DNA of 64,000 bases, taken from IMG/VR virus record IMGVR_UViG_3300035047_000196. One strand, 5' to 3'. The stretch's first letter is position 1. Each line of letters opens with the position of its first letter. The position numbers and the translations under genes were made by a program. The notes under the pieces were generated by a model. The model was not told the origin of the DNA and searched no databases. It saw nothing but the letters and a program-made list of their open reading frames with translations. This DNA comes from a virus. Shown piece after piece: positions 10,023-38,636 of the stretch.

Positions 10023-10388
10023 TTATGTGATGGCCAGATCTCCAGTAACCTTCACAGTCACTTCAGCCGTCATTTTGTCTTCCAACGGTACTGCCGGTTT
10101 CATCGACGTCATGAATGCGTTAAACACCCATATGCTTCCGTCCGGGAAAGTGATCGTACAACTACTCGCTGCCGAATCAATCGGAGGGGTATCACTTGGG
10201 TCATAAGCAATCGTCACTGTCATCTCTCCCCAGTCCACCAAATCGGCGGGGGTAAAAATATGAGACGAACCTGTACCCATGTGAGATACGTCAATTGCTT
10301 CCCTCGATGCTCCTGGAGGATTTACATCCAGCAACTCGCCAAGGAAACTTTCCCAAGAAATACTTGTGCCTGTTCCAATATCAGCCAT
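10023..10388 (-). CDS. Tail tube protein paralogue 2
   Basis: 121 aa; IGTGT..PPG.SREAIDVSHMGT..P.DL.DWGE..KV(T)G pattern shared with 10415..10792. Confidence 0.75.
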   Translation of the reverse strand: MADIGTGTSISWESFLGELLDVNPPGASREAIDVSHMGTGSSHIFTPADLVDWGEMTVTIAYDPSDTPPIDSAASSCTITFPDGSIWVFNAFMTSMKPAVPLEDKMTAEVTVKVTGDLAIT

Positions 10389-10414: not shown

Positions 10415-10792
10415 TTAAGATACTGACCCACTAACCTTGACAGTTACTTCAGCCGTCATCAATTCTTCCATTGGAGCAGCGGGTTCATATCCGGTCATAA
10501 ATCCTTTGAAGGATATACTCCCAGCTCCACTAGCTCCAAAAGCGATTGTGATCTCTTCAGGAATAGTTACTGTTAATGCAGTGGCAGGGTCTACCGACGG
10601 ATCGAATTGAATCGTCATACTGAACTCTCCCCAATCGGGAAGATCTGCTGGCATAAATACTTTCTGCCCCGTAGTACCCATATGGGTGATGTCTATTGAT
10701 TCCCTATCCGGTCCGGGTGGGGTGATCTCAATAATGTCCGCTGTAAAGCTGGACGTACCAAAAGTCACTGTTGTTCCTGTTCCGATATACAT
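10415..10792 (-). CDS. Tail tube protein paralogue 1
   Basis: 125 aa; IGTGT..PPGPDRESIDITHMGT..PADLPDWGE; position after tail terminator. Confidence 0.75.
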   Translation of the reverse strand: MYIGTGTTVTFGTSSFTADIIEITPPGPDRESIDITHMGTTGQKVFMPADLPDWGEFSMTIQFDPSVDPATALTVTIPEEITIAFGASGAGSISFKGFMTGYEPAAPMEELMTAEVTVKVSGSVS

Positions 10793-12000: not shown

Positions 12001-12350
12001 AACATAGCCACCCTTAAAAATTCGACAGCCTTCAAATCAGGAAACTTCTGCCAACCCTTAATAGGCTTGGCTCCCTTGGTCTCTTGCGGATCCGGCTTAA
12101 TCGCATCATCATTCAATCGTCCTAGAAACAACCAACCGCCAATTTTCAAATCACGGTCTGGATATACAATCGAACTGGAGATGTTTTTATTGCCATTAGA
12201 ATCAACAAACTCTTTGACCTCGTCGTCCCACCTGCATTCAATCTCTACAGGAGCTTCGAAAGCCTTCCGACCAAACCCGTCTCCACCGGATAGCTCTTTG
12301 GGCGCCCAGTAGACGGCTTTTTGTTTTCTCATTCTGGTGATGATGCTCAT
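11997..12350 (-). CDS. Head-closure / stopper protein
   Basis: 117 aa in neck gene order; DGFGR..F..PVEIECRW. Confidence 0.7.
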   Translation of the reverse strand: MSIITRMRKQKAVYWAPKELSGGDGFGRKAFEAPVEIECRWDDEVKEFVDSNGNKNISSSIVYPDRDLKIGGWLFLGRLNDDAIKPDPQETKGAKPIKGWQKFPDLKAVEFLRVAML

Positions 12351-12748
12351 GAGTTTGCCGGACTGATCGGTTCAATTCCATTGATCCGTGCGGTCCTTCT
12401 GCCTTTCTTCCTATTCAACTCCGCCAAAGCGCCAGACGTATCAAGCAGTATTGCCTGCTGCCCAAACATCGTAGCATCCAAACGGTATCCGACCTTATAT
12501 TGATATGATGCTGAGACCGGCCCGGCCTTCTCACTGGCAATGCGCTGTTCCCTCAGAGAGGCGAAGTGAGCTGAAAGATACAACTCAATATCTTTCAACT
12601 GGGCTTCGGTTAGAGAGCTGTCCGTACAAACCGAATCCGTAAATCTATTTGCAAGATTGATGAACGGGGTCAGTGTCAGCGAGTCCTCAAACTCAGCGAT
12701 TGCTCGGACTTCTGCTTGTGTGTTCCTAGCAGCCATTGTCTCCTCCAT
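12347..12748 (-). CDS. Head-tail adaptor (DUF4054-like)
   Basis: IELYLSAHFASL and ATMFGQQA motifs. Confidence 0.75.
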   Translation of the reverse strand: MEETMAARNTQAEVRAIAEFEDSLTLTPFINLANRFTDSVCTDSSLTEAQLKDIELYLSAHFASLREQRIASEKAGPVSASYQYKVGYRLDATMFGQQAILLDTSGALAELNRKKGRRTARINGIEPISPANS

Positions 12749-13397
12749 TCCACAACTTAGGGTCTACGAATTCAGAAACCGCCTTCTCATTCCATTTCAA
12801 GCCAAGCTGCTCAATAATTGATTTGATTTGTGAAAATTCTCCTCGGACAATATCTGGTGTCCACACTACAGAGATATCAAGCCCGGCTTCTCTCATCTCA
12901 CGAAATCTCCGGATATGTGTGTGAACCCATTCACGCCAAGCCTCGGCGGTTTTGAGTTTCCTCATGAAAGGAGTCTTCAAACAAGAGAAGACGATCTCTT
13001 CTATGGGCCTGCGTACGATGATCCATTTGGCATTCGGGAATGCTTTGTGGAAAACCGGCCAGACAAGGCACATCTTAGCTCCTTTGTAATACCACGGTCC
13101 ATTCCGATATCCATCCTGCTTCATGATCAATTCCATTTCAAAACCCAACTCAGGATATGCCTTGAGAGAATTCATGTCTTGTGGTAAAGGAAACTGTCCC
13201 ATAGGATCAAAACCCATTGATCGCAGATAAGGCTTGATGAGGCCATTACGCACCCGCTCGTTTTCGAACATCCCCTTCTTGTTATTGCGGTTTGGACCGG
13301 CAGTGATCCCACCAAAGGCCCCGCAGATATCGACAATACCAGCGGTCATGGAAGTGCCCGACCTAGCAGCTCCTGTTATGAGAATAGGATCACACAT
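12726..13397 (-). CDS. PAPS-dependent sulfotransferase-like protein
   Basis: ILITGAARSGTS (5'-PSB-like) and IIVRRP..IVFS (3'-PB-like); probable start 13397. Confidence 0.75.
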   Translation of the reverse strand: MCDPILITGAARSGTSMTAGIVDICGAFGGITAGPNRNNKKGMFENERVRNGLIKPYLRSMGFDPMGQFPLPQDMNSLKAYPELGFEMELIMKQDGYRNGPWYYKGAKMCLVWPVFHKAFPNAKWIIVRRPIEEIVFSCLKTPFMRKLKTAEAWREWVHTHIRRFREMREAGLDISVVWTPDIVRGEFSQIKSIIEQLGLKWNEKAVSEFVDPKLWNGGDNGC

Positions 13398-15783
13398 TAT
13401 TCCATGCCCCCTGCACATCTATGTTGTCCACATTGTGAGGCCTTGGCTTTCCATGGAAACAAATCACATCAGCTTTATCCGGTACTGTGTTTGTTTCTTT
13501 GCAATCCCTTTTCCAGGAAACGATATTCATTACGTTCTGGATTGGATCCGGTCTCACTCCATACAGCTCCATTAACTGGGTCTCTATGAATTGCTGTTCT
13601 GTCATAGCACGCAACCCAAGTTCCTCAGATTTAGCCATCAACTCTTTTCGGCTGTTCAAGAAGGCATCCCAAAGTTTTTCAAAATCCCCTCCACGCCAGC
13701 ACATGATTCCTGAAGCGAATCTTTTCTTGGAACGGAAGCTGCGCAACATACCAAACCCATGCTTTGGTGCCATCTGTAACTGTCCATTGAGGGTGTGCAT
13801 GAAAACTGTATCCAGATCAAAATACCAAACCAACTCACCGCTCTGGAAAACACCCTCCCTGAAAAGTTCCATCTTCGCCCAAGTGCGAACACGCTTATGA
13901 TCGTACTGCCCTTCTATCGAGATGCACTCGACCCCTTCTATATCAAGCGGGTGTTCGGTCAAGAGTCTCTTCTCTTGGTCAGGGAATTGGTTGAACAGAT
14001 TCCTGACATACCGCTCATCAAAGCCATTGCCTTCTAAGTAGACTCCAGCGACTACAACGCGCAGGTTTTCAAAATGCTTGAACCCATTGGCCTTCTTTAC
14101 CTTGATCGGCTTCTGCTTCTTGAACCTGGTAACAGATTTGTTCTTAGATTCCTTCTTGATGGAAGCGATATCTTTCCAATCCGGTTGTGTGCTCTGCCCT
14201 TTCACCAAACGTTCAAAAGACCGGACTACTGTTTCGACTCTGAGATCCAAAGTATCGAGTGCTGTATACCATACATCTCGCGAATCTGGAGGGCAGCTGT
14301 GCCACCAGAAGTCTGGGTGATAATAGCTATTCCATAACATAAGGGTCGGTACCTTGAATCGTGTGGACATGATTGTAATACCGCTTAGATATCCGACAAC
14401 GCCAATAGACCCTTTCATCATCCCAAAGACATCTTCCAATGAAGTACGACCGACTTCATTGTAAATGAAATTCGTTCCTTCTGCCTTCTGAATACGAAGA
14501 AGGATTTTATCCAGCTTCCCTCTGTCCCATGCAGCACCAACCAGGACTACATTTGCTTTCAGCCTATCGCTGATCTCCCGTAGGGCTACATACGTTTTCT
14601 TGATATCGAATTCATCCAGCCAACGCTTGTATGTCCCGTGCGGAACTATGTAACAAACAACATAACGCCCATACCGGTTTTGATACCGGTCGATAGCGGC
14701 CTGTTCTTCCAAACTCTCAAACATCGGGAAATACCACTGCGGTTCAAGGTGTGGATCAACAGCGGACAAAGATGCTCCATAACGCATCACCCCGTTGTAA
14801 GCAATGAACTTATCACACCCGACGACGTTATCAAAGATGGTGCGGCCATCGTGCATGTACGCTTCTTTCCAGATCTTTCCTTCATGGTCATGCTTCAAAT
14901 ATCCGGCAGCATTACACCAGCTACACATACGCACGTAATCAATACTGCGGTCACGGGCATTCTTCATTGGAGAAGAGATATAAATATCGGGTTGGCCATA
15001 TCCACCTTGTTCGCAAAAAGACTTGGCTTTCAAAAGGCTCCAATAGATGTCACCGACACCCGGCGGAACCAAAATACTGATGCGAGCCTGTTTTAGTTTA
15101 TGGACCGTGAAAGCCAGTTTGGAAGAGATGGGTTGAACAACACCGACAACCTCAAAACCTATCTCTTCAAGGAGTTGGATCATCTGTTCCTTGGTCGGCA
15201 TCCATAGATGCTCAACCATTTTCCAGTGATGCTTACCCGACCTGCTCCAGAAGTGTGGGATTTCAAGCACAGCAAATCCAGACGGCTTCAAACAGCGATA
15301 GATTTCTTCGAGGACCTGCTTCGGATTTGGCATATGTTCAAGGACATCAAATGAAACGACACTGTCAAAGTAGTCTGTCGGGAAATGGATCTGTTCGATA
15401 GTCTTTGGGAAGAACCTTCGTGCTCGGGATGTTGGTGAAAGGTCACAACCCATTGCATCAACACCCTTATCCAATAAGGTGTTCACGAACGCTCCGGAAC
15501 CACAGCCAACGTCAAGCACCCGATCGCCCTCACCCATATCCTGGAAACTGTATTCCTCCACACGGGCTTTTGCTACTTCCAGATCGTGTTCATAAGAGTG
15601 CTGATAGACCGCTTCATGGTATTGCTCTTCATACCACTTAGCTAGCTCAGAAGCCGGCATATCACCAACGTCTTGATGGCTGACACCGCACCTCTGGCAA
15701 ACCAACATCGGTATACCGTTCTTGGTCTTGTGATCAAAAGACCGGCAACTGCAGATGTAGCATTTCTCTATCACTTTCTTCAT
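13390..15783 (-). CDS. Multidomain enzyme: Zn-ribbon + class I SAM methyltransferase + GT9-like (GT-B) + GT8-like (GT-A) glycosyltransferase
   Basis: CxxC..CxxC; VLDVGCGSG and FDVLEH; PPGVGDIYW and GVVGYLSG; YFDLDTV (DxD) and CFHGKPRPH. Confidence 0.75.
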   Translation of the reverse strand: MKKVIEKCYICSCRSFDHKTKNGIPMLVCQRCGVSHQDVGDMPASELAKWYEEQYHEAVYQHSYEHDLEVAKARVEEYSFQDMGEGDRVLDVGCGSGAFVNTLLDKGVDAMGCDLSPTSRARRFFPKTIEQIHFPTDYFDSVVSFDVLEHMPNPKQVLEEIYRCLKPSGFAVLEIPHFWSRSGKHHWKMVEHLWMPTKEQMIQLLEEIGFEVVGVVQPISSKLAFTVHKLKQARISILVPPGVGDIYWSLLKAKSFCEQGGYGQPDIYISSPMKNARDRSIDYVRMCSWCNAAGYLKHDHEGKIWKEAYMHDGRTIFDNVVGCDKFIAYNGVMRYGASLSAVDPHLEPQWYFPMFESLEEQAAIDRYQNRYGRYVVCYIVPHGTYKRWLDEFDIKKTYVALREISDRLKANVVLVGAAWDRGKLDKILLRIQKAEGTNFIYNEVGRTSLEDVFGMMKGSIGVVGYLSGITIMSTRFKVPTLMLWNSYYHPDFWWHSCPPDSRDVWYTALDTLDLRVETVVRSFERLVKGQSTQPDWKDIASIKKESKNKSVTRFKKQKPIKVKKANGFKHFENLRVVVAGVYLEGNGFDERYVRNLFNQFPDQEKRLLTEHPLDIEGVECISIEGQYDHKRVRTWAKMELFREGVFQSGELVWYFDLDTVFMHTLNGQLQMAPKHGFGMLRSFRSKKRFASGIMCWRGGDFEKLWDAFLNSRKELMAKSEELGLRAMTEQQFIETQLMELYGVRPDPIQNVMNIVSWKRDCKETNTVPDKADVICFHGKPRPHNVDNIDVQGAWNNV

Positions 15784-15989
15784 GTCACTATCCTCGTCAC
15801 TACAATCACAACCTGAACATCAGTTGCTTCTCCTCCATGTGCTATTCCTTGCCATGTCCCATCCACATTGCGACGAAAATGAGCTATGACATCCCACTCC
15901 TCTTCATTCAAAGGATTTCCTGTGGTGACAGACCGCACCAGATCCTTCACCACTTCGGCTGGTATGATGTTATGGTTGAATTGGGTCAT
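15780..15989 (-). CDS. Small hypothetical protein in the modification island
   Basis: 69 aa from ATG 15989; its stop overlaps the start of the 797-aa gene. Confidence 0.5.
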   Translation of the reverse strand: MTQFNHNIIPAEVVKDLVRSVTTGNPLNEEEWDVIAHFRRNVDGTWQGIAHGGEATDVQVVIVVTRIVT

Positions 15990-16761
15990 ATCCAAAAGCC
16001 TCTTGCAAACGATTGATGTCCTGCAAATAGGGTTCCACAAGTTTCATGTACTCGGAATAAATCGCCCTTGCGCTCTTGGACATCCCTGTGCATGAAATCT
16101 TGGTTTCGTATTGATCAGGGTCGGGTGGGTTAATCAAGCCAACATCCTGACAGAGCTTGGTTGCTGCGGGACGGCCACCTGAAACGAGATCCTCGTGCCT
16201 GACCAAAATCCTCAAATGGTTCTTTTCAATACCAGCGATCAATTCAAATTGTTTGATCCACTCTTCACAGAATTGTCGAATGTCACCCTCTCTTGTGCAG
16301 TTCGGGGTATGTACTGAGAAATCCTTTTTGAAACGGCTTGTGAAACTCATGAAGAAATCACGAATAAGGAAAACCACGTTTGATTCTGGAAACTTCTTGT
16401 TGATGAAATGCAGGACCGTTTCATTCCAATTCACTTCCTTGAGTCCCCACCTAGAATAGCCTTCCCGTTGTGCCGTAACAGCATAAAGCCTATCCAAGTA
16501 AAGAGCACGAGCAGCAAAAGCATCCTCCAGTTCAGGCGAGAGAACGGCCATCCACATATTTGCCTTCTTCTCCCTGAATGTCTTCAAATCATGGCCGCTG
16601 CGGTCAGGACTCCAACGATCACCATAGGGGAAAAGCAATGATGTATTCTCACCCCAAACAAGCACCTCATTAGTAGAGGTCAGGATTCTCTGAACCCATG
16701 TGCTTCCAGATCTAGGACACCCGGCTAAAACAAAGATTGGCCTATTATGCAAGATACTCAA
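15970..16761 (-). CDS. PAPS-dependent sulfotransferase-like protein
   Basis: FVLAGCPRSGSTW, WGLKE, FLIRD..SF.S and VRHEDLV motifs. Confidence 0.8.
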   Translation of the reverse strand: MSILHNRPIFVLAGCPRSGSTWVQRILTSTNEVLVWGENTSLLFPYGDRWSPDRSGHDLKTFREKKANMWMAVLSPELEDAFAARALYLDRLYAVTAQREGYSRWGLKEVNWNETVLHFINKKFPESNVVFLIRDFFMSFTSRFKKDFSVHTPNCTREGDIRQFCEEWIKQFELIAGIEKNHLRILVRHEDLVSGGRPAATKLCQDVGLINPPDPDQYETKISCTGMSKSARAIYSEYMKLVEPYLQDINRLQEAFGYDPIQP

Positions 16762-17453
16762 CGTAACGCTTCCTCCAACGCCATCTTCGGAAATTCATTA
16801 AGGCCGGATTCAGGGTTGGCGTTGATCACCTCAACATCCGGCACGGACTTCTTCAAATTCTTTGCGAGGACGGCGAACCCTTTATGGAACTTATCTAGCA
16901 ACTGATCACCCTCTTTACTAGACTTCGCCTTGGCTACATGACAGGGATTATTTTTCGGGTTGGGATGCCAGTTCCAATTTGGTACATCGTTCTTCATATC
17001 AAACCCGACAAGGATTATCTTCTTGCAACCCAATTTCACAGCCAGCTCAACAGCAGAGGCGCCAGTGTTCAAATACCATTTGATTTCAAAGGACTGCTTT
17101 GCCAATCCTCCGGTTGAAATCCTCAACTGATTCAAGAACCGCACAGCCCTCTCACCATAATCCCGAACCATGTTTACCTGCCGAGCTACTGGACAGCATG
17201 TGACTTTCAATCCGGCGAACTTGGCTAATCGCTGGCGGTGGATCTCTTCCCACCAAACGTAATCGCCAAAGAAACAGATGTCCACCCACGCACCAAGAAG
17301 GTATGCATCATTGCAACCAATGATACGGAAGTCTTTGATGAGATCCAGGTCGATGCCCTCTATGGAGGGTCCGCCACCTACGATCACGCAAGTACGATCT
17401 CTCCACATTTCAGGAACCGACCAAAACCATTTCTCTGGATTGTGAGTGGACAC
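16758..17453 (-). CDS. DUF115/Maf-like (sialyltransferase-like Rossmann fold) glycosyltransferase
   Basis: VIVGGGPS, IGCND, DICFFGD, NTGASAVELAVKLGCKKIILVGFDM. Confidence 0.7.
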   Translation of the reverse strand: MSTHNPEKWFWSVPEMWRDRTCVIVGGGPSIEGIDLDLIKDFRIIGCNDAYLLGAWVDICFFGDYVWWEEIHRQRLAKFAGLKVTCCPVARQVNMVRDYGERAVRFLNQLRISTGGLAKQSFEIKWYLNTGASAVELAVKLGCKKIILVGFDMKNDVPNWNWHPNPKNNPCHVAKAKSSKEGDQLLDKFHKGFAVLAKNLKKSVPDVEVINANPESGLNEFPKMALEEALR

Positions 17454-17470: not shown

Positions 17471-17905
17471 TCACGACTTTTTCTTTCGTTTGGCTTTGAC
17501 TTTCTTTTTGGGCTTCTTGGGTTCCTTGGGCATAGCTTCAAGAATGTCAGGAAGGGCTTCGACTCCACCTTCAACTAACTCATCTGCCTGTTCACGAGTC
17601 AGATAACCATCATGTACTGATTCACCTGTCTCTGTATTGAACACTACCCAACGAGCCCCTCCCTTGTGCTTCGCTGCCAAGGTGATAGATTCTTCATCAA
17701 GCTCGTCATCTTCTGCTTCAATGATCGCTCTTACATCCTCATCATCAGCATCAATGAGACCTTCGACTCGCTCAAACTTCGACGGCCATGTCTTCTTGAG
17801 ATCACGGTCGGAAGTAACGATTTGCCCCGGCTTAAATACCATGTCCCCGACACGGTACGTTCCGAAAAGCAGTTTGAATTGCATCTTCTTACTCATTTGC
17901 TTCAC
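17471..17905 (-). CDS. Capsid-adjacent protein with acidic linker and basic C-terminal tail
   Basis: 144-aa ORF right after the major capsid gene (probable start 17896); ends KKPKKKVKAKRKKKS. Confidence 0.65.
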   Translation of the reverse strand: MKQMSKKMQFKLLFGTYRVGDMVFKPGQIVTSDRDLKKTWPSKFERVEGLIDADDEDVRAIIEAEDDELDEESITLAAKHKGGARWVVFNTETGESVHDGYLTREQADELVEGGVEALPDILEAMPKEPKKPKKKVKAKRKKKS

Positions 17906-17937
17906 TCCTTCTCTTTTTCTCTTTCCCTTCCACCCTT

Positions 17938-17961
17938 GGGGGGAGTTTTTACGCTCCCCCC
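17938..17961 (-). other. 8-bp GC stem-loop downstream of the major capsid gene
   Basis: ggggggag-tttttacg-ctcccccc; no U-tract in the minus sense, so stabiliser or attenuator rather than a classical terminator. Confidence 0.5.
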
Positions 17962-17979: not shown

Positions 17980-18960
17980 TTATTCGGCGAAGTCAGCGAT
18001 ACCACAGCTACCGTCCTGATCGGTGCGGAGCAGCGGAACCTGAATCGTCATCACCTTGTTGGTCGTCTTCAGACCACCCATGGAATCCCAGCGAACGTTC
18101 GTCACTGCGAGACCTTCGACGATTGCGGCAACATCCTTGGTAGCCTGCAACATGATCACATGACCATCTGTCAGCTTATCAGCGATGTCGATAGAGAGGA
18201 TGCCTTCCATCTCCATCAGGCGCGAACGAACCGTCTTCGGATAATTCGAAGTGTAGTCATCATCCAGCACAGTGTCATACGCCGTCGGCGCGAACACCAT
18301 GTACGGACCATAGTAGCCGGCATCGATCAGGGCCTGCTTCATATTCAGCAAGTCAGTTTTCGGTGCGGCACCAGAGGCATCCCAAGGAGCCGTCAAGCTG
18401 CCGGCATTGGCAGACGGGAAGTCTACCAGTCCGTAGATCACCTTGTCGGCGAACTGGAACGAATCCAGACCATTGCACGCAATATCCTCAACCTTCTCTG
18501 CAACCTTACGGCCAGCAGCGGAGGCATAACTCGTGTCCAGGTTACGGCCATTGTTGCGGGCCGCCTGAATCATACGTGCATTCAAGGAATACGATTTGTG
18601 AACGATGGGCAGAGGGAGTCCCCTCAACTCATAGTTCAGGCGATCGTCGTCGCCCTTGGTAACCGCATCCATATCAACATCGGCATCATCCATGTCACTC
18701 ACGTCTTCGTATTCGTAGATCGTTGTTCCGAGACCACCGGTCAGCGGAATCACCAAGCCACGAGAGCGAAGAGCTGCGACAACACGTAAACGCTGCTGCA
18801 CTGCTTCAACGATAGCCGTATCGTACTGCTTCCATTCATCCTTCCGAAGAAGATCATTGGTACGCAGACCCGACGGATCCATGTTGCAAGCGAGCAGCTT
18901 GGTCGCGACATCGCCATGAGCCTTGCCATTGATGATGGCGTCCATTCTTGCTTTGCTCAT
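17980..18960 (-). CDS. Major capsid protein (HK97 fold, encapsulin/Linocin-M18-like)
   Basis: 326 aa; LRKDEWKQYDTAIVEA and LPLPIVHK motifs; follows protease and decoration genes. Confidence 0.85.
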   Translation of the reverse strand: MSKARMDAIINGKAHGDVATKLLACNMDPSGLRTNDLLRKDEWKQYDTAIVEAVQQRLRVVAALRSRGLVIPLTGGLGTTIYEYEDVSDMDDADVDMDAVTKGDDDRLNYELRGLPLPIVHKSYSLNARMIQAARNNGRNLDTSYASAAGRKVAEKVEDIACNGLDSFQFADKVIYGLVDFPSANAGSLTAPWDASGAAPKTDLLNMKQALIDAGYYGPYMVFAPTAYDTVLDDDYTSNYPKTVRSRLMEMEGILSIDIADKLTDGHVIMLQATKDVAAIVEGLAVTNVRWDSMGGLKTTNKVMTIQVPLLRTDQDGSCGIADFAE

Positions 18961-18996: not shown

Positions 18997-19488
18997 TTAC
19001 ACCGCGATGCACTTCAGCAGGCGGGTAGATTCCGCACCACTGGAGCTACTCAGATCGAGTGCTTCTTCTGCGATTGCTACGATCTGCTTACCGTAAATCG
19101 TAGTCAGAGCACCAGAGCTGTCAGCCCCAAGTGTCTCTGTATCCGGTGTGTGAGGCTGTACGTCGCCGTCACCTGCGCTCTCAAGAGGATCCCCAATAGA
19201 AACACTCTCGCCGTCTTTCAACTGCAAGAGAACGCGATCGCCCGGCCGGAGGACTTCCGCCTGCAAGCGGTTGTCTGCCGAATAATCATCCGTGACCGTC
19301 TTACCCTGCAGATCATCTTCGACAGCAACGATAAGCGGAAGTACATTGCCACCAGCAGTGGAGTGCTTCTGGAACTTATCAGCGCTTGTCAACTCGACGA
19401 TCTGGCCGGGTGCCACTGCTTCTGCAGCAGGCCGGTCGTAGCGAATCGGGTCGCCGTAGCGAGCGAGTACGATTTTCCTTTTAGCCAT
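18997..19488 (-). CDS. Capsid decoration / cement protein
   Basis: 163 aa between scaffold and capsid genes; AVAPGQIVEL, VAVEDDLQG. Confidence 0.7.
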   Translation of the reverse strand: MAKRKIVLARYGDPIRYDRPAAEAVAPGQIVELTSADKFQKHSTAGGNVLPLIVAVEDDLQGKTVTDDYSADNRLQAEVLRPGDRVLLQLKDGESVSIGDPLESAGDGDVQPHTPDTETLGADSSGALTTIYGKQIVAIAEEALDLSSSSGAESTRLLKCIAV

Positions 19489-21178: not shown

Positions 21179-21450
21179 TAGGCTTCCTCCACTTCTCTTT
21201 CCATCACTTCAGTGGCTCTTGCCATAGATCCAGAAATCCCTCTTGGAATAGCTTTCAAAAAAGCAAGTTTGTCATTTGGATACAGAGCTCGACCATCGGG
21301 AAGTTGAATGCCATAGGCTTTCCAATAACGAACAAGAAGGCTAGCGGATCCATTGAAAGACATCTTGTCTCCTCTCAAAGAGACTTCTCCAATTACCTTC
21401 TGCTGCCCGTTCTTCAAGGTCTTCAATATCTGTACATATTGTTCCTTCAT
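21178..21450 (-). CDS. Candidate immunity protein for the MuF kinase
   Basis: 90 aa, ATGA-coupled directly behind the MuF-kinase gene; function inferred from position only. Confidence 0.45.
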   Translation of the reverse strand: MKEQYVQILKTLKNGQQKVIGEVSLRGDKMSFNGSASLLVRYWKAYGIQLPDGRALYPNDKLAFLKAIPRGISGSMARATEVMEREVEEA

Positions 21451-23339
21451 AAGATAGTTCCTTTCTCAAAGGACTCGACAATAACCCTGAACTCTTCGAA
21501 CACAGGTTTAATACGTTCTGGAACGGTCGAATCAAAACCAGAAGAATATAGTCTGAAAGCATCATAGCCGTCTTCGTCCTGCAACGCCCGAACCAGAAGC
21601 TGACGACGAGCTTCTAAAGTATTTTTTGTAACCTCGTTCACACCTAATTTGGACATCTCTGGACCATTGAAAAACTTCTCCACATCCAAATCTTGCAACG
21701 TCTTCAACCAGCGACTTCTCATGTACTCAAAGTCATCCGGAAGAGTGGCAAGGAAATCGCTACGCATGTGTGCTTTTATCAAGTTACTAGAAAAACAATA
21801 GCCATTATCAATCAATTTCAAAACAGACTCTTTACCCTTGGTTGAAACCATCCAATTATACGAATGTCGATCTCCGGCACCCGTCAGATAATCAAACACA
21901 AAAGTATCGGCGCCCTGTTTGGAGTCGATGAGATTATCTACAAAATCCCAAGGCAACTTGCCATTTGCAGCAGCATCTGCAGCGGGAACATAATCATCAA
22001 GATACTGCTGTATTGAAACATTGCCATAGTCTTTCAAACCTCTTCGATAAACAGTACGTGGAACTTTGTTCAGACCAATCTCTTGATCAAATAAATAAGC
22101 AGCACGCTCTCTTTGAGCCGCTGTGAACTCTGGATTCTCAAGTAAAGCGGGGTGCTTGTATTCTCCAGACTCCTTCTTGAGAACTCCTGTAACCTTCTTG
22201 TCCCCTTTTTTCAAACGAACTAATTGAGCATCATTCACACCCCCACCAAGATTAGATGATTCTGTTACAGTTCCAGTTCCAAAAGCAACCTCATCTGTAA
22301 TGGGAACAGAAGGCACAGCGTCCGGCTTTGCCGGCAGACAGACACAACGACAGTTTGGATGAACAGGAATAAGGCCGCGAGCTTCCTTCAATGAAAATAT
22401 CTGACCCTCTAACTCCATGCACTGAGAACAGACGCGGTCATCAAGAGCAGTAGCAAACTCGGCCAATACTGTAACACCCTCTGCCCCTGCCTGCTCATAA
22501 GTATTTATGGTAGCGACATGATGAGCACGTACGATTTCTGTTCTTGCAAGCGTTCTGGCCCTCTTGATCTCCAAACCAACCGCTTTGTTCATCGCACGGG
22601 CGATCTTCTTAGGATTATCACCATCAATAAGACCCTGTGAAAGAACACGGGTGATGGCGGTTTCTGTTCGACGCGTCACACTCTTGACCCCATCCCAAGT
22701 ACGAGTGTAGAGATTGGCTACAGTGTCCATATGAATAGGGGCATTAAATGGAGACTGGAATGGACCATCAGACACCTCACCTATGCCAGCGATCTCTAAT
22801 TCGGTCTCCGCTCGAATCATCCCCTTCTTATAGCTGGACTCGATATATTGATCAGTCCAGCGGACAGCACCACCAGAGGACCCTTGAACAACACCAAGAG
22901 GCGCGTCCGGCTTGGCCATCTCATCTTCCAACCATTTTTGGAAGTCCTCTATCTTCTGATCGCTTGTGGTGAAGCCGGCGAAGGCACGGGGAGGGAGAGC
23001 CTCGTTCGCTGTAAGTGTATTGGTCGAGTGTGACTCGCTCAATCCCCGTAACGCCGGCATTGGATCTCTCAACCCAAAGCAATCGTTTTCTATGACACTC
23101 TTGTTGATCAACCCTTTAATCAATCTGAAACGCTTGTACATTTCGGCGGACATTTTTCTACGTAACATAGTCGTGCGGGTTGGGTCGGCCCTTCCGGTGG
23201 TGCTCCCGTTCGTTGCCAAGGAGGAAGCGGTGAGAGAGCGAAGACCTCCCTGCCTCACGCTTTTTTGGAGCACACTGAGCCGACCCAACCCCATCCGGGT
23301 GGAGGTACATACAGCACAGGTATGTTGCACGATGGTCAT
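21447..23339 (-). CDS. MuF (SPP1 gp7-like) minor head protein fused to a PI3/4-kinase/HipA-like kinase domain
   Basis: ARTEIVRAH, CSQC, PVHPNCRC (MuF); GGGVN, VLKKE, RERAAYLFD, GAGDRHSYN, IDNG (kinase). Confidence 0.8.
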   Translation of the reverse strand: MTIVQHTCAVCTSTRMGLGRLSVLQKSVRQGGLRSLTASSLATNGSTTGRADPTRTTMLRRKMSAEMYKRFRLIKGLINKSVIENDCFGLRDPMPALRGLSESHSTNTLTANEALPPRAFAGFTTSDQKIEDFQKWLEDEMAKPDAPLGVVQGSSGGAVRWTDQYIESSYKKGMIRAETELEIAGIGEVSDGPFQSPFNAPIHMDTVANLYTRTWDGVKSVTRRTETAITRVLSQGLIDGDNPKKIARAMNKAVGLEIKRARTLARTEIVRAHHVATINTYEQAGAEGVTVLAEFATALDDRVCSQCMELEGQIFSLKEARGLIPVHPNCRCVCLPAKPDAVPSVPITDEVAFGTGTVTESSNLGGGVNDAQLVRLKKGDKKVTGVLKKESGEYKHPALLENPEFTAAQRERAAYLFDQEIGLNKVPRTVYRRGLKDYGNVSIQQYLDDYVPAADAAANGKLPWDFVDNLIDSKQGADTFVFDYLTGAGDRHSYNWMVSTKGKESVLKLIDNGYCFSSNLIKAHMRSDFLATLPDDFEYMRSRWLKTLQDLDVEKFFNGPEMSKLGVNEVTKNTLEARRQLLVRALQDEDGYDAFRLYSSGFDSTVPERIKPVFEEFRVIVESFEKGTIL

Positions 23340-37461: not shown

Positions 37462-37899
37462 ATGAGAGGGTACACAATCAGGAAGACATTCAAGTTTGAG
37501 GCGGCTCATTTTCTTGAACACGCATACTCAACAGCCTGCATGTCCGTACATGGTCATTCATATGTTGTTGAGGTATTTGTAAGAGCGGATCAATTGAACA
37601 AAGATGGAATGGTGATAGATTTCGGTCAACTTAAAGACGTTGCCGGCAATCTGATAGATTCATTCGACCATGCTTTGATCATTAAGGAGTCAGAGAAAGA
37701 TCATCCATTGTCCAAGGCAGAGAAGGTTGTTACCATGAAAGAAAATCCGACAGCCGAAAACATGGCCCGACACTTTTTTGAGAAGATTAGATCAAAACTG
37801 ATAGATAATCGGAGTATGGATAACGAACGGCGTGGGCTGCGTCTCGTCAAAGTAAGAGTTCATGAAACCAAAACAGGATGGGCTGAATATGAAGGTTAA
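37462..37899 (+). CDS. queD: 6-carboxy-5,6,7,8-tetrahydropterin synthase
   Basis: FEAAHFL, C..VHGHSY, IDFG, FDHA, PTAENMA, VHET. Confidence 0.92.
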   Translation: MRGYTIRKTFKFEAAHFLEHAYSTACMSVHGHSYVVEVFVRADQLNKDGMVIDFGQLKDVAGNLIDSFDHALIIKESEKDHPLSKAEKVVTMKENPTAENMARHFFEKIRSKLIDNRSMDNERRGLRLVKVRVHETKTGWAEYEG

Positions 37900-38563
37900 T
37901 GAAATTTTCACATCCTTCTCTGGAGAGGTTGGTTTGTTTCCTCAGGGAACAGCGGTTCAGTTTATTCGTTTTCCAGGATGCAACTTGCGTTGTACTTTTT
38001 GCGACACTAAGCAAACTTGGGATTCTGATAATGGAAGTGAATTCAATTTGGAAGAATTGCTTGACCGTCTTGAAGCTTCCTCCTTGCGCAGAGTTGTCAT
38101 AACAGGAGGTGAGCCTCTTTTACAAGGACGTCAACTTGGAGATCTGATAGAGATTCTGATTTCTGTTGGATACAAAATTCAAATCGAAACCAATGGAACC
38201 ATGCTCCCTTCCGGTAAGATCCTGTGTGCCGATTGTTTTGTCTTTGACTATAAGCCATTGTCTTGTGGAATTGAGGAGCATGCTTCAATGATGTCCCCAG
38301 ATATGTTTGCCAAAGCACCCAGTGGCTCTTGGATTAAAGCCCCGTACATGAACAGACATGACCTAGCACAGGCCATAATCTTCATAAAAGAAGTCCTCCA
38401 ATATCGGGACCCAAGTGACTTGAATGTTGCTATTTCTCCTGTGTTTGGAAAAGACGGGTCTTTGCTTTGTGGTTTTGATCCTTTAGGGATGTTGGATTCT
38501 GCCGGTTTGCTAGAACATGTAGTGATGAATATCCAAATCCATAAAATTGGAAATTTTTCATAA
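37889..38563 (+). CDS. queE: 7-carboxy-7-deazaguanine synthase (radical SAM)
   Basis: F.SFSGE, FIRFPGCNLRCTFCDT, ITGGEPL, IETNG, QIHK. Confidence 0.92.
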   Translation: MKVNEIFTSFSGEVGLFPQGTAVQFIRFPGCNLRCTFCDTKQTWDSDNGSEFNLEELLDRLEASSLRRVVITGGEPLLQGRQLGDLIEILISVGYKIQIETNGTMLPSGKILCADCFVFDYKPLSCGIEEHASMMSPDMFAKAPSGSWIKAPYMNRHDLAQAIIFIKEVLQYRDPSDLNVAISPVFGKDGSLLCGFDPLGMLDSAGLLEHVVMNIQIHKIGNFS

Positions 38564-38592
38564 CTCTTGCAGGCCTTGTGAGTATAATATAG
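38555..38592 (+). promoter_or_regulatory. Candidate phage promoter TTTTC..AACTC-N16-TATAATATAG
   Basis: Same elements and spacing as 46944-46982. Confidence 0.6.
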
Positions 38593-38636
38593 TGAACAAA
38601 GGGTGAAAGTCGAACCACAACACATAGGAGGAAGAC

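Follow-up and report, generated by a model that had tools for sequence, protein, structure and literature searches.

Genes for sugar-adding, methylating and sulfate-adding enzymes between the capsid and head-tail adaptor genes of an uncultivated oil-field phage

An uncultivated phage from oil fields carries genes for sugar-adding, methylating and sulfate-adding enzymes in the stretch that separates its capsid and head-tail adaptor genes. The DNA analysed here (64,000 nucleotides of IMG/VR record IMGVR_UViG_3300035047_000196, referred to as the window) contains five tightly coupled open reading frames on the minus strand at 12726-17453, exactly where a first-pass annotation, made from the sequence alone, had described an island within the late head operon. 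All public runs that contain the phage DNA (n=17) are oil-field DNA runs. Ahead of the island come the major capsid gene and one small conserved gene, behind it comes the head-tail adaptor gene, and within it the gene junctions are overlaps of 4-29 nt. The genes upstream encode a decoration protein, the HK97-type major capsid protein and a protein of 144 aa; those downstream encode a DUF7370/DUF4054-type adaptor, neck proteins and a tail terminator. The features are:

18997..19488, minus strand: head decoration protein, 163 aa, putative acceptor (phrog_766, 1e-15)
19027..19056, minus strand: serine-cluster loop DLSSSSGAES, residues 145-154 of the decoration protein, candidate O-glycosylation/sulfation site
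17980..18960, minus strand: major capsid protein, HK97 fold family, upstream anchor (DUF6260 1.5e-17, Linocin_M18 1.6e-9, phrog_771)
17471..17905, minus strand: 144-aa protein with acidic core and basic tail, conserved by position, not island-specific
16758..17453, minus strand: Maf/GT42-like (MptE-like, DUF115) transferase, 231 aa (PF01973, phrog_4603, Foldseek)
15970..16761, minus strand: sulfotransferase 1, 263 aa, TTG start, rare accessory gene (Sulfotransfer_3, 7e-20)
15780..15992 (70 aa, ATG) or to 16040 (86 aa, TTG), minus strand: orphan small ORF, predicted by one gene caller
13390..15783, minus strand: 797-aa fusion of Zn ribbon, SAM-MTase, GT9-like and GT8-like domains (profiles, structure matches)
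15688-15762, minus strand: Zn ribbon of the fusion (C8/C11/C29/C32)
15145-15573, minus strand: SAM-MTase domain of the fusion (Methyltransf_23; VLDVGCGSG from residue 89)
~14188-15093, minus strand: GT9-like GT-B domain of the fusion (profile and Atlas structure match; PPGVGD from residue 240)
13393-14058, minus strand: GT8-like GT-A domain of the fusion (profile, AF2 and Foldseek; D656-L-D658, H777)
12726..13418, minus strand: sulfotransferase 2, last island gene, overlapping the adaptor gene (Sulfotransfer_3, 3e-6)
12347..12748, minus strand: head-tail adaptor, DUF7370/DUF4054-like, downstream anchor (family profile matches)

Every domain call of the first-pass annotation agreed with Pfam, PHROG, profile and Foldseek checks, and cofactor and catalytic motifs were found in all four island enzymes. 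In NCBIfam no island protein had a match above cut-off, and a DNA similarity search with a 7.5-kb query returned zero matches among 50,697 phage records. The island proteins have no membrane segments (maximum KD19 hydropathy 1.37), indicating that the enzymes are soluble. Promoter and terminator counts around the island equal chance expectation, and speak neither for nor against its separate transcription. At the downstream border, the adaptor gene probably starts at 12736, overlapping the end of the sulfotransferase 2 gene; sulfotransferase 2 itself probably starts at its second ATG (13397, by family alignment), which gives 223 aa instead of 230. At the upstream border, Pfam, PHROG and NCBIfam searches found no family match for the 144-aa protein (17471..17905), and in island-less relatives its slot is taken by a 100-123-aa ORF with a similarly charged tail. 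The island had been described as having five genes: the four enzyme genes stand, and the small ORF was rejected as part of the system, having no homolog across about 130 related loci. It also has no family match, and its internal ATG start (15780-15992) is likelier than the TTG start (15780-16040).

By profile and fold, the first island protein falls with the Maf/GT42 sialyltransferase-like (MptE-like, DUF115) proteins. Its score against PF01973 (MptE-like/DUF115), 34.6 bits, exactly equals the curated cut-off, and it matches phrog_4603, 'alpha-2,3-sialyltransferase', at 3e-34. Foldseek searches with an AF2 model (pLDDT 83) gave TM values of 0.45-0.56 for the top matches, and retrieved CstII/CstI (5e-6), a P. 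multocida sialyltransferase, the Maf structure 5mu5 (5e-4) and MptE HPPK; a pterin pyrophosphokinase is also among the members of the MptE-like fold. In 13 phage homologs GGGPS, N48, D64, D152 and H163 are invariant; the catalytic acidic residues of M. magneticum Maf are E324 and D415 (bioRxiv 10.1101/2020.06.03.131540). The phage protein does not have the full Maf architecture (~600 aa), measuring 231 aa against the 632 residues of 5mu5, with a TM by target of 0.23. The domains that flank the catalytic core of Maf are thought to engage flagellin, and because they are missing here we file the protein as Maf-like/GT42-like, not as Maf. It is probably the initiating glycosyltransferase of the island.

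The fusion protein joins a methyltransferase to two glycosyltransferase domains. Methyltransf_23 matches residues 71-213 at 9e-25. For the middle domain (residues ~231-532), PF01075 is recorded on many homologs but has no match at E <= 0.01 on the fusion of this phage. A 34-sequence profile of the domain matched WaaF (1psw, 4e-4) and TibC (0.05), and its Atlas model aligned with GT9 clusters at TM 0.68/0.83 and 0.67 over 262-283 residues. Homolog annotation, profile and fold together place the domain in GT9, with D245 in PPGVGD invariant; TibC is a GT9-like enzyme able to glycosylate protein serines. The hallmarks of GT8 are a GT-A fold, a DxD metal site and a C-terminal His ligand. In the GT8-like domain D656-L-D658 is a nearly invariant DxD and H777 in FHGKPRP is invariant; the AF2 model (pLDDT 94) drew 50 top Foldseek matches that are all GT8 (E about 1e-8), including Skp1 alpha-GalT, glycogenin, LgtC and GlyE. 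Profile matches again pointed to Skp1 alpha-GalT and glycogenin, with 6mw5 at 5e-4. Homologs of the fusion fall into >100 clusters, and the protein as a single query found zero loci among viral contigs. A single-sequence search of solved structures likewise returned nothing for the glycosyltransferase part; profiles were required for the matches to these domains and to the sulfotransferase.

PAPS sulfotransferases bear a 5'-phosphosulfate loop, K/R-S/T-G-S/T-S/T, and a 3'-phosphate-binding R...S motif. By profile and by these binding motifs, both island sulfotransferases have the PAPS-dependent fold. Sulfotransferase 1 scores 72.7 bits against Sulfotransfer_3 (PF13469; cut-off 27) and contains PRSGST at residues 16-21 and RD..S from residue 134. 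Sulfotransferase 2 is marginal, at 28.0 bits against the same cut-off of 27, and its homologs bear PF13469; it contains ARSGTS at residues 18-23, and R19-S-G-T-S23, R137 and S145 are invariant in 37 homologs. The two are not recent duplicates, being only distantly related (hhalign probability 24%). Neither gave a match in a single-sequence search of solved structures, and the nearest solved sequences to sulfotransferase 2 are TPST1/TPST2, at an E of 0.02-0.05 that is below significance. Homologs of sulfotransferase 2 form at least 1305 clusters, and the Atlas places the protein in sulfotransferase clusters that are mostly Uroviricota. Current lists treat phage sulfotransferases as auxiliary genes whose function is unclear (PMC10580990).

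The rest of the window bears on precursor supply, host and target. A profile scan of the 20 larger ORFs outside the structural arm found replication and recombination functions only, so that the earlier statement that no PAPS or nucleotide-sugar genes are visible holds for these ORFs; nonulosonic-acid (Pse/Leg/Neu) genes were likewise absent among the scanned ORFs. Relatives L027 and L028 have an APS kinase gene immediately before that of the sulfotransferase 2 homolog, which eases the worry over the source of PAPS. The replication genes are of lytic type, and the phage encodes a sigma-70 region 2 protein and bacterial-type RecA and PolA, which point to a bacterial host. Labels of related contigs assigned to MAGs conflict (Methylococcaceae, Deltaproteobacteria, Bathyarchaeia, Heimdallarchaeia, Spirochaetota and others), and given this inconsistency we name no host. 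Glycosylation, methylation or sulfation might instead hypermodify the bases of virion DNA, an alternative already raised in the first-pass annotation, and base-decorating phage glycosyltransferases are known (bioRxiv 10.1101/2023.12.21.572611). The scanned ORFs include no hydroxymethylase, TET or kinase that would provide a sugar-accepting base, the fold relatives of the island enzymes act on proteins or glycans, and the association is with the head operon. A putative DpdA/7-deazaguanine cluster at 37462-42201 would mean that this phage invests in DNA modification, but would also place its genes for that purpose in the other, replication arm. We grade DNA hypermodification as highly unlikely.

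The synteny survey that the first-pass annotation had proposed places the island at a fixed site in most relatives. Capsid and decoration-protein queries gathered 80 distinct capsid loci, 62 of which have enough downstream DNA to be informative. The island occupies the capsid-adaptor site in 53 of these 62; the nine loci without it all belong to one sister clade, and a single gain or loss on the capsid tree (support 100/99) suffices to explain its distribution. Complete islands (n=31) range in size from 1.6 to 8.6 kb. All 31 begin with the Maf-like gene and 29 end with sulfotransferase 2, and sulfotransferase 1 is found in one of the 31. The interiors vary, with GT2, GT-D, methyltransferase, radical SAM/SPASM, cupin, transketolase-half, SDR and PfkB kinase genes, and the minimal islands, L004 and L009, are exactly a Maf-like gene plus a sulfotransferase. 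Mean identity is 44% for sulfotransferase 2 and 42% for the capsid protein, so the two are equally conserved.

Related genes also recur at other positions. In L003, a homolog of sulfotransferase 1 lies between the MuF and scaffold genes, and a prophage of another lineage, in Euryhalocaulis caribicus JL2009, has a Maf-sulfotransferase pair between its MuF and head protease genes. Two Halioxenophilus genomes carry a sulfotransferase 2 homolog directly after a flagellin-family gene (FlgL position), followed by a glycosylation-type cluster of DegT, HMW1C-like GT, FkbM MT and acetyltransferase genes.

Taken as a whole, gene content and context are best read as an island that modifies a virion protein by glycosylation with sulfation, a reading to which we assign a probability of roughly 0.55. 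The first-pass annotation had proposed virion modification as well, and that part of its interpretation is the one best supported by context: the fixed site, the prophage pair, the flagellin neighbour and the soluble enzymes. Gaps between capsid and neck genes often take up accessory genes, and the site might accordingly be a tolerated moron insertion whose products act on host flagellin or pilin, a non-structural phage protein or a small molecule; bacterial sulfotransferase homologs also occur beside an RTX/Hint protein and a haem peroxidase. Yet the end genes are kept across a deep clade with the conservation of the capsid protein, and the Maf-sulfotransferase pair, or a sulfotransferase, recurs in head modules at other positions. 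A target outside the virion therefore appears quite unlikely.

With virion modification as the preferred reading, the island would be one version of a hypervariable late-operon glycan-tailoring cassette, whose position is fixed across a large clade of tailed, uncultivated phages. The soluble, cytoplasmic enzymes would most likely act on new head proteins before or during assembly. In a first step, the Maf/GT42-like transferase might put a CMP-activated keto-sugar acid, possibly Kdo or a nonulosonic acid, onto a Ser/Thr of a virion protein. Extension of this sugar could then fall to the GT9-like and GT8-like domains, plausibly using ADP-heptose and UDP-hexose out of host LPS-precursor pools, after which the methyltransferase domain may O-methylate the glycan and the two unrelated PAPS sulfotransferases may add sulfate esters. 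PAPS would come from the host for this phage, and through their own APS kinase in some relatives. Because Maf enzymes are able, in E. coli, to attach Neu5Ac and Kdo to Ser/Thr by O-linkage (bioRxiv 10.1101/2020.06.03.131540), the CMP-Kdo of a Gram-negative host could serve as donor. Conserved end genes around a changeable interior would permit cassette swap by recombination, as at O-antigen loci. What the analysis shows is gene structure, folds, motifs, synteny and gene associations; we infer the substrates, donors, step order and target protein, and assume that CMP-Kdo, ADP-heptose and PAPS are available. The lack of the Maf flanking domains, the pterin pyrophosphokinase within the MptE-like fold and the absence of nonulosonic-acid or nucleotide-sugar genes among the scanned ORFs weigh against this scheme.

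Among possible acceptors, the serine-cluster loop in the decoration protein ranks first. The decoration protein has 438 relatives in IMG/VR. The strict motif D[LM]S.SS is present in 31 of the 61 distinct decoration proteins that come from loci with an island, a looser form is present in 45, and the remaining proteins have other Ser/Thr-rich loops; in three readable island-less loci the loop is shortened or altered. Since the island distribution amounts to one evolutionary change on the capsid tree, which offers no independent contrasts, we rejected the motif as a correlation test and treat its link to the island as a lead. The capsid alignment has no Ser/Thr-rich segment particular to island-bearing loci. 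Complex prediction for the Maf-like and decoration proteins gave a score of 0.00, which counts neither way on binding.

The fusion domains fit a second kind of target equally well. GT9 and GT8 enzymes build the LPS inner and outer core (profile matches to WaaF and LgtC-type enzymes), the Atlas includes a GT2-sulfotransferase fusion cluster, and sulfotransferases occur in bacterial surface-glycan clusters and have been noted in O-chain islands (PMC3542563). The island might thus remodel the host envelope by changing, on the cytoplasmic side, the LPS core, the capsule or some other surface glycan; by masking receptors, this would block superinfection or the loss of progeny on cell debris. Several features make this unlikely. 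None of the island proteins is a flippase, an Und-P-linked component or a membrane component; all are soluble. Translational coupling ties the genes to neck genes within a late head operon, and the replication genes of the phage are of lytic type. In temperate phages, genes for surface conversion are normally found outside structural operons. The Maf-sulfotransferase pair also recurs within the head module of a prophage that is unrelated.

A further question is where the sulfate goes. As TPSTs are the nearest solved sequences to sulfotransferase 2, sulfate is perhaps placed on protein, not sugar: the enzyme may act on Tyr/Ser/Thr of a head or neck protein independently of the glycosyltransferases, yielding a particle with both glycan and protein sulfate esters, or with sulfate alone in the case of minimal islands. 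Consistent with direct protein sulfation, fusions to TPR protein-binding repeats occur among bacterial homologs (L123), and the sulfotransferase 2 gene always abuts and overlaps the adaptor gene. However, the TPST matches fall under significance, the Maf-like transferase nearly always co-occurs, with both genes making up the minimal islands L004 and L009, and homologs stand in sugar-tailoring contexts (GT2 fusion, DegT/HMW1C-like neighbours). We consider sulfation of this kind doubtful. With TPST1/2 (PDB 5wrj, 3ap1), sulfotransferase 2 shares a Sulfotransfer_3-type fold and the 5'-PSB and 3'-PB PAPS motifs; it differs in that the similarity reaches only E 0.02-0.05 and in genomic neighbours that suggest sugar tailoring.

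Returning to a sulfated glycan on the virion, we also offer a specific version, tentatively and with low expectation that all its parts would hold. An LPS-core-like chain, consisting of a keto-acid sugar such as Kdo, heptose and hexose, would be built on the serine loop of the decoration protein from host CMP-Kdo, ADP-heptose, UDP-hexose and PAPS only, and would be capped by methyl groups and two sulfates to give a polyanionic, strain-variable coat. The Maf-like and sulfotransferase genes would act as recombination anchors, and a sulfated flagellin glycan in Halioxenophilus would be the cellular counterpart. The donors of the GT9/GT8 LPS enzymes, ADP-heptose and UDP-Glc/Gal, are present in Gram-negative hosts. 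The fusion domains match the folds and motifs of LPS core enzymes (WaaC/WaaF in GT9; LgtC and WaaO/R/T-type in GT8; TibC/BAHT) but, unlike these, they are encoded by a phage within a head operon and are fused to one another, to a methyltransferase and to a zinc ribbon.

Virion glycosylation by phages has a precedent in mycobacteriophages (cluster O Corndog-type, Che8, Myrna), according to the accounts in PMC11600133 and PMC12582341; in cluster O, as summarized in PMC11600133, citing Freeman 2023, tandem glycosyltransferases encoded beside an O-methyltransferase modify capsid and tail tube proteins. The oil-field phage similarly has soluble glycosyltransferases and a methyltransferase, inside the head operon. 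It differs in its Maf/GT42-like, GT9-like and GT8-like set, the added sulfotransferases, the hypervariable cassette at a fixed site and a host without known actinobacterial affiliation. A tblastn search of INPHARED (50,697 phage records) with the fusion found no mycobacteriophage match and only GT8-like/MTase pieces (Stenotrophomonas and Xanthomonas jumbo phages, P1 PmgQ and others). On this comparison, the resemblance to the mycobacteriophage enzymes is functional, not by descent. To our knowledge, mycobacteriophages are the only phages for which virion glycosylation by phage-encoded enzymes has been demonstrated, and there it influences recognition by antibodies.

Two further systems resemble the island in part. 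Flagellin islands of Campylobacter, Aeromonas and Magnetospirillum (Maf 5mu5) also combine a Maf-fold transferase with variable tailoring genes beside a self-assembling surface protein; the phage island differs from them in its 231-aa core without flanking domains, in its proposed capsid-associated target and in the absence of Pse/Leg/Neu genes among the scanned ORFs. We know of no description of sulfation of Maf-type flagellin glycans. Fibril-glycosylation clusters of Megavirinae (Moumouvirus australiensis, Cotonvirus) contain SAT/APS kinase and sulfotransferase genes and are predicted to make sulfated glycans (PMC10117803). Both viral systems unite glycan genes with a sulfotransferase and, in relatives of our phage, a PAPS-supply gene, and particle-surface sulfation is predicted in both. 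However, the Megavirinae are eukaryotic giants with full nucleotide-sugar pathways, different enzymes and fibril proteins as targets, whereas the island belongs to a tailed phage (65.6-kb contig) that would draw mainly on host precursors.

In the literature searched, we found no phage sulfotransferase described as acting on virions. If the preferred reading is correct, particle glycosylation would be common in environmental phages (at least 1305 sulfotransferase clusters, 438 decoration-protein relatives), and sulfate esters, with which no phage particle is documented, would be a new chemistry. A changeable anionic coat could alter stability, grazing and recognition by host defences, as well as sticking to minerals, oil-water interfaces and exopolymers. 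The same reading would offer a function for an unannotated class of phage sulfotransferase genes. It also indicates cultivable systems, namely the Euryhalocaulis caribicus JL2009 prophage and the Halioxenophilus flagellar cluster.

The window is nearly an entire phage genome. Its proteins are found on a 65,611-bp contig, and a structural arm on the minus strand (about 1-27000) is followed by a replication arm on the plus strand. The genes that surround and make up the island are as follows:

Gene order of the head, island and tail genes in the window (all on the minus strand)
Head genes upstream of the island, in order: MuF-type minor head protein (21447-23339), 90-aa gene, DUF2213-like scaffold/protease
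Head genes next, up to the island: decoration protein (18997-19488, phrog_766), HK97-type major capsid protein, 144-aa protein (17471-17905)
16758-17453, minus: Maf-like protein
15970-16761, minus: 263-aa sulfotransferase
15780-15992, minus: small ORF
13390-15783, minus: 797-aa fusion
12726-13418, minus: 230-aa sulfotransferase
Genes downstream of the island, in order: DUF7370/DUF4054-type adaptor, neck proteins, tail terminator, tube, chaperones, tape measure

The first-pass annotation had described five overlapping genes at 12726-17453 within the late morphogenesis genes. All five ORFs are found there and, by gene order, the island lies between the capsid and 144-aa genes on one side and the adaptor gene on the other. 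Island genes overlap at their junctions by 4-29 nt, and the last runs past the point where the head-tail adaptor gene probably starts; the block is therefore built for translation together with the neck genes. A sufficiently long hydrophobic segment, as expected of a membrane helix or signal peptide, was found in none of the island proteins. Judged from sequence, the island is best read as directing virion glycosylation with sulfation, because its enzymes appear soluble, its genes are coupled to those for head and neck proteins, its association with head modules recurs, and a bacterial parallel occurs at a filament protein gene.

The Maf-like protein scores exactly at the PF01973 cut-off and matches phrog_4603 at 3e-34. 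Its AlphaFold model, for which 13 phage homologs were used (pLDDT 83), most resembles two Campylobacter GT42 sialyltransferases, CstII and CstI (E 5e-6), with further matches to a Pasteurella sialyltransferase, a Magnetospirillum Maf (5e-4) and then the archaeal MptE kinase. Invariant features include GGGPS, N48, D64, D152 and H163. Since its 231 residues comprise the catalytic core only, we name the protein Maf/GT42-like rather than Maf. In the 797-aa fusion, a four-cysteine ribbon is joined by a class I SAM-methyltransferase. Three lines of evidence mark the middle domain as GT9-like: Pfam hits among homologs, a match to WaaF by profile and an Atlas structure match. The C-terminal domain was identified as GT8-like both from a profile and from a model with pLDDT 94, and the DxD motif and histidine ligand are conserved. 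Among the sulfotransferases, the 263-aa protein is a clear Sulfotransfer_3 member (7e-20), whereas the 230-aa protein falls narrowly above the cut-off of that family; the two are only remotely related. The 230-aa family comprises at least 1305 clusters, mostly viral in the Atlas, and in the 230-aa protein both PAPS-binding motifs are invariant. Absence of catalytic residues had been named at first pass as a finding that would refute the reading; on inspection, the cofactor and metal motifs are present. The small ORF has no relative among about 130 loci.

Searching IMG/VR with the capsid and decoration proteins (the latter has 438 relatives there) yielded 105 loci, with 80 capsid loci after removal of duplicates. 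Where at least 1.5 kb of sequence follows the capsid gene, a Maf-like gene comes after it in 53 of 62 loci; in the remaining nine, the adaptor gene begins 350-460 nt past the capsid gene with only a small charged protein between. These nine island-less loci form one clade (100/99 support), and island presence thus reflects a single gain or loss. Complete islands (n=31) span 1.6-8.6 kb. All 31 contain the Maf-like gene, 29 the 230-aa-type sulfotransferase and 16 a GT8-like domain; the full three-domain fusion and the 263-aa-type second sulfotransferase each occur in one of the 31. Minimal islands (loci L004 and L009) consist of the Maf-like gene and the 230-aa-type sulfotransferase and nothing else. 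Bigger ones add GT2, GT-D, several methyltransferases, radical SAM/SPASM enzymes and a cupin, as well as a split transketolase, short-chain dehydrogenases and a PfkB kinase. The pattern at this fixed site is a changeable interior between conserved end genes. At 44% identity, the 230-aa-type sulfotransferase equals the capsid protein (42%) in conservation, and the Maf-like gene evolves faster (32%). In two related loci, L027 and L028, an APS kinase lies immediately upstream of the sulfotransferase, which connects the family with PAPS chemistry and responds to the first-pass question of PAPS supply. The large island of L027 (L027:1-10723, on a 107-kb metagenome contig) holds a zinc ADH, a PfkB sugar kinase, DUF268, a split transketolase, an SDR, an MTase-GT9 fusion, the APS kinase and the sulfotransferase; the phage there thus encodes supply genes for both sugar precursors and PAPS.

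When species-representative genomes were scanned with a profile of the sulfotransferase, 22 loci emerged. In a prophage of Euryhalocaulis caribicus JL2009, whose portal and capsid families differ from those of the window phage, a Maf-like gene and a sulfotransferase homolog lie between the MuF and head-protease genes; in the related locus L003, a homolog of the 263-aa second sulfotransferase sits between MuF and scaffold genes. Neither a single insertion site nor a single lineage therefore accounts for the siting in the head module. In Halioxenophilus aromaticivorans KU68F and Halioxenophilus sp. WMMB6, the sulfotransferase homolog directly follows a flagellin-family gene in a FlgI-FlgJ-FlgK series. 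It is followed by a DegT aminotransferase, an HMW1C-like glycosyltransferase, an FkbM methyltransferase, a hexapeptide acyltransferase and an AMP-binding enzyme (L126:4607-12650 and L118). This looks like a flagellar glycosylation cluster and suggests that some cultivated bacteria sulfate a flagellar glycan. Other bacterial homologs are TPR-repeat fusions or have unrelated neighbourhoods. The TPR fusions, together with weak TPST matches, fit a rival reading in which the sulfotransferase sulfates protein directly.

The donors of GT9 and GT8 enzymes are ADP-heptose and UDP-hexoses. In E. coli, Maf enzymes can join Kdo and Neu5Ac to Ser/Thr through an O-link (bioRxiv 10.1101/2020.06.03.131540). 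Combining these specificities, all three transferase modules could be fed from the LPS precursor pools of a Gram-negative host. As noted at first pass, no nucleotide-sugar genes were found among the window ORFs scanned. GT9 and GT8 are also LPS-core families, in keeping with a second rival, remodelling of the host envelope by the island enzymes; action on a non-virion target is a further competing reading. DNA modification is the least likely, as nothing that would create a sugar-accepting base was found among the window ORFs scanned.

If the island glycosylates virions, the decoration protein offers a candidate acceptor. Decoration proteins of island-bearing phages carry a conserved loop ahead of the last strand (DLSSSSGAES in the window). 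Of 61 sequences, 31 have the strict motif and 45 a looser form, and the others have different Ser/Thr-rich loops; among the three available sequences from island-less loci, two have a shortened loop. Because island presence represents one evolutionary event, we regard this loop as a lead only. Alternative candidate acceptors are two tandem tail-tube-like paralogs:

10415-10792, minus: 125-aa tail-tube-like protein
10023-10388, minus: 121-aa tail-tube-like protein

Both contain 22-23% Ser+Thr, and in several relatives one single gene matches both.

Mycobacteriophage virion glycosylation is the nearest demonstrated system (PMC11600133); in a tblastn search with the fusion protein against 50,697 phage records, the enzymes of the two showed no sequence relationship. 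In logic, the closest analogues are flagellin glycosylation islands. Megavirinae clusters with APS kinase and sulfotransferase provide a viral parallel, itself predicted (PMC10117803). The function of phage sulfotransferases has been stated to be unclear (PMC10580990), and we found no report of one acting on virions in the literature searched.

Several further features were observed. Known targets of Fam20 kinases are secreted proteins and the xylose of proteoglycans. The MuF protein has a C-terminal kinase-like domain (residues 474-551; PI3_PI4_kinase 1e-6, Fam20C 1e-4) for which, given such substrates, a link to virion modification is conceivable; the 90-aa gene directly after is coupled to the MuF gene. 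The 144-aa protein is acidic at its centre and lysine-rich in its tail; whether or not a relative has the island, its capsid gene is followed by an ORF comparable in size and charge pattern. Immediately past the capsid stop codon, a GC-rich stem-loop (17922-17945; 8-bp G/C stem, no T-run) may act as a transcript stabiliser or as a read-through attenuator between the capsid gene and the island. In the Euryhalocaulis prophage, the portal protein (L120:2442-4340; Phage_portal_3, 1.5e-110) carries a C-terminal Acb1 anti-CBASS phosphodiesterase domain (2e-34), so that a counter-defence enzyme would be part of the virion portal. In the replication arm (43226-45836, plus strand), a uracil-DNA-glycosylase-superfamily domain and a PolA-type 3'-5' exonuclease form one fusion, followed by the PolA polymerase as its own gene; the polymerase is thus split. 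Window DNA was found in 17 oil-field metagenome runs (17 studies or samples), nine of which contain half or more of the sampled words, and the phage is thus recurrent in this habitat.
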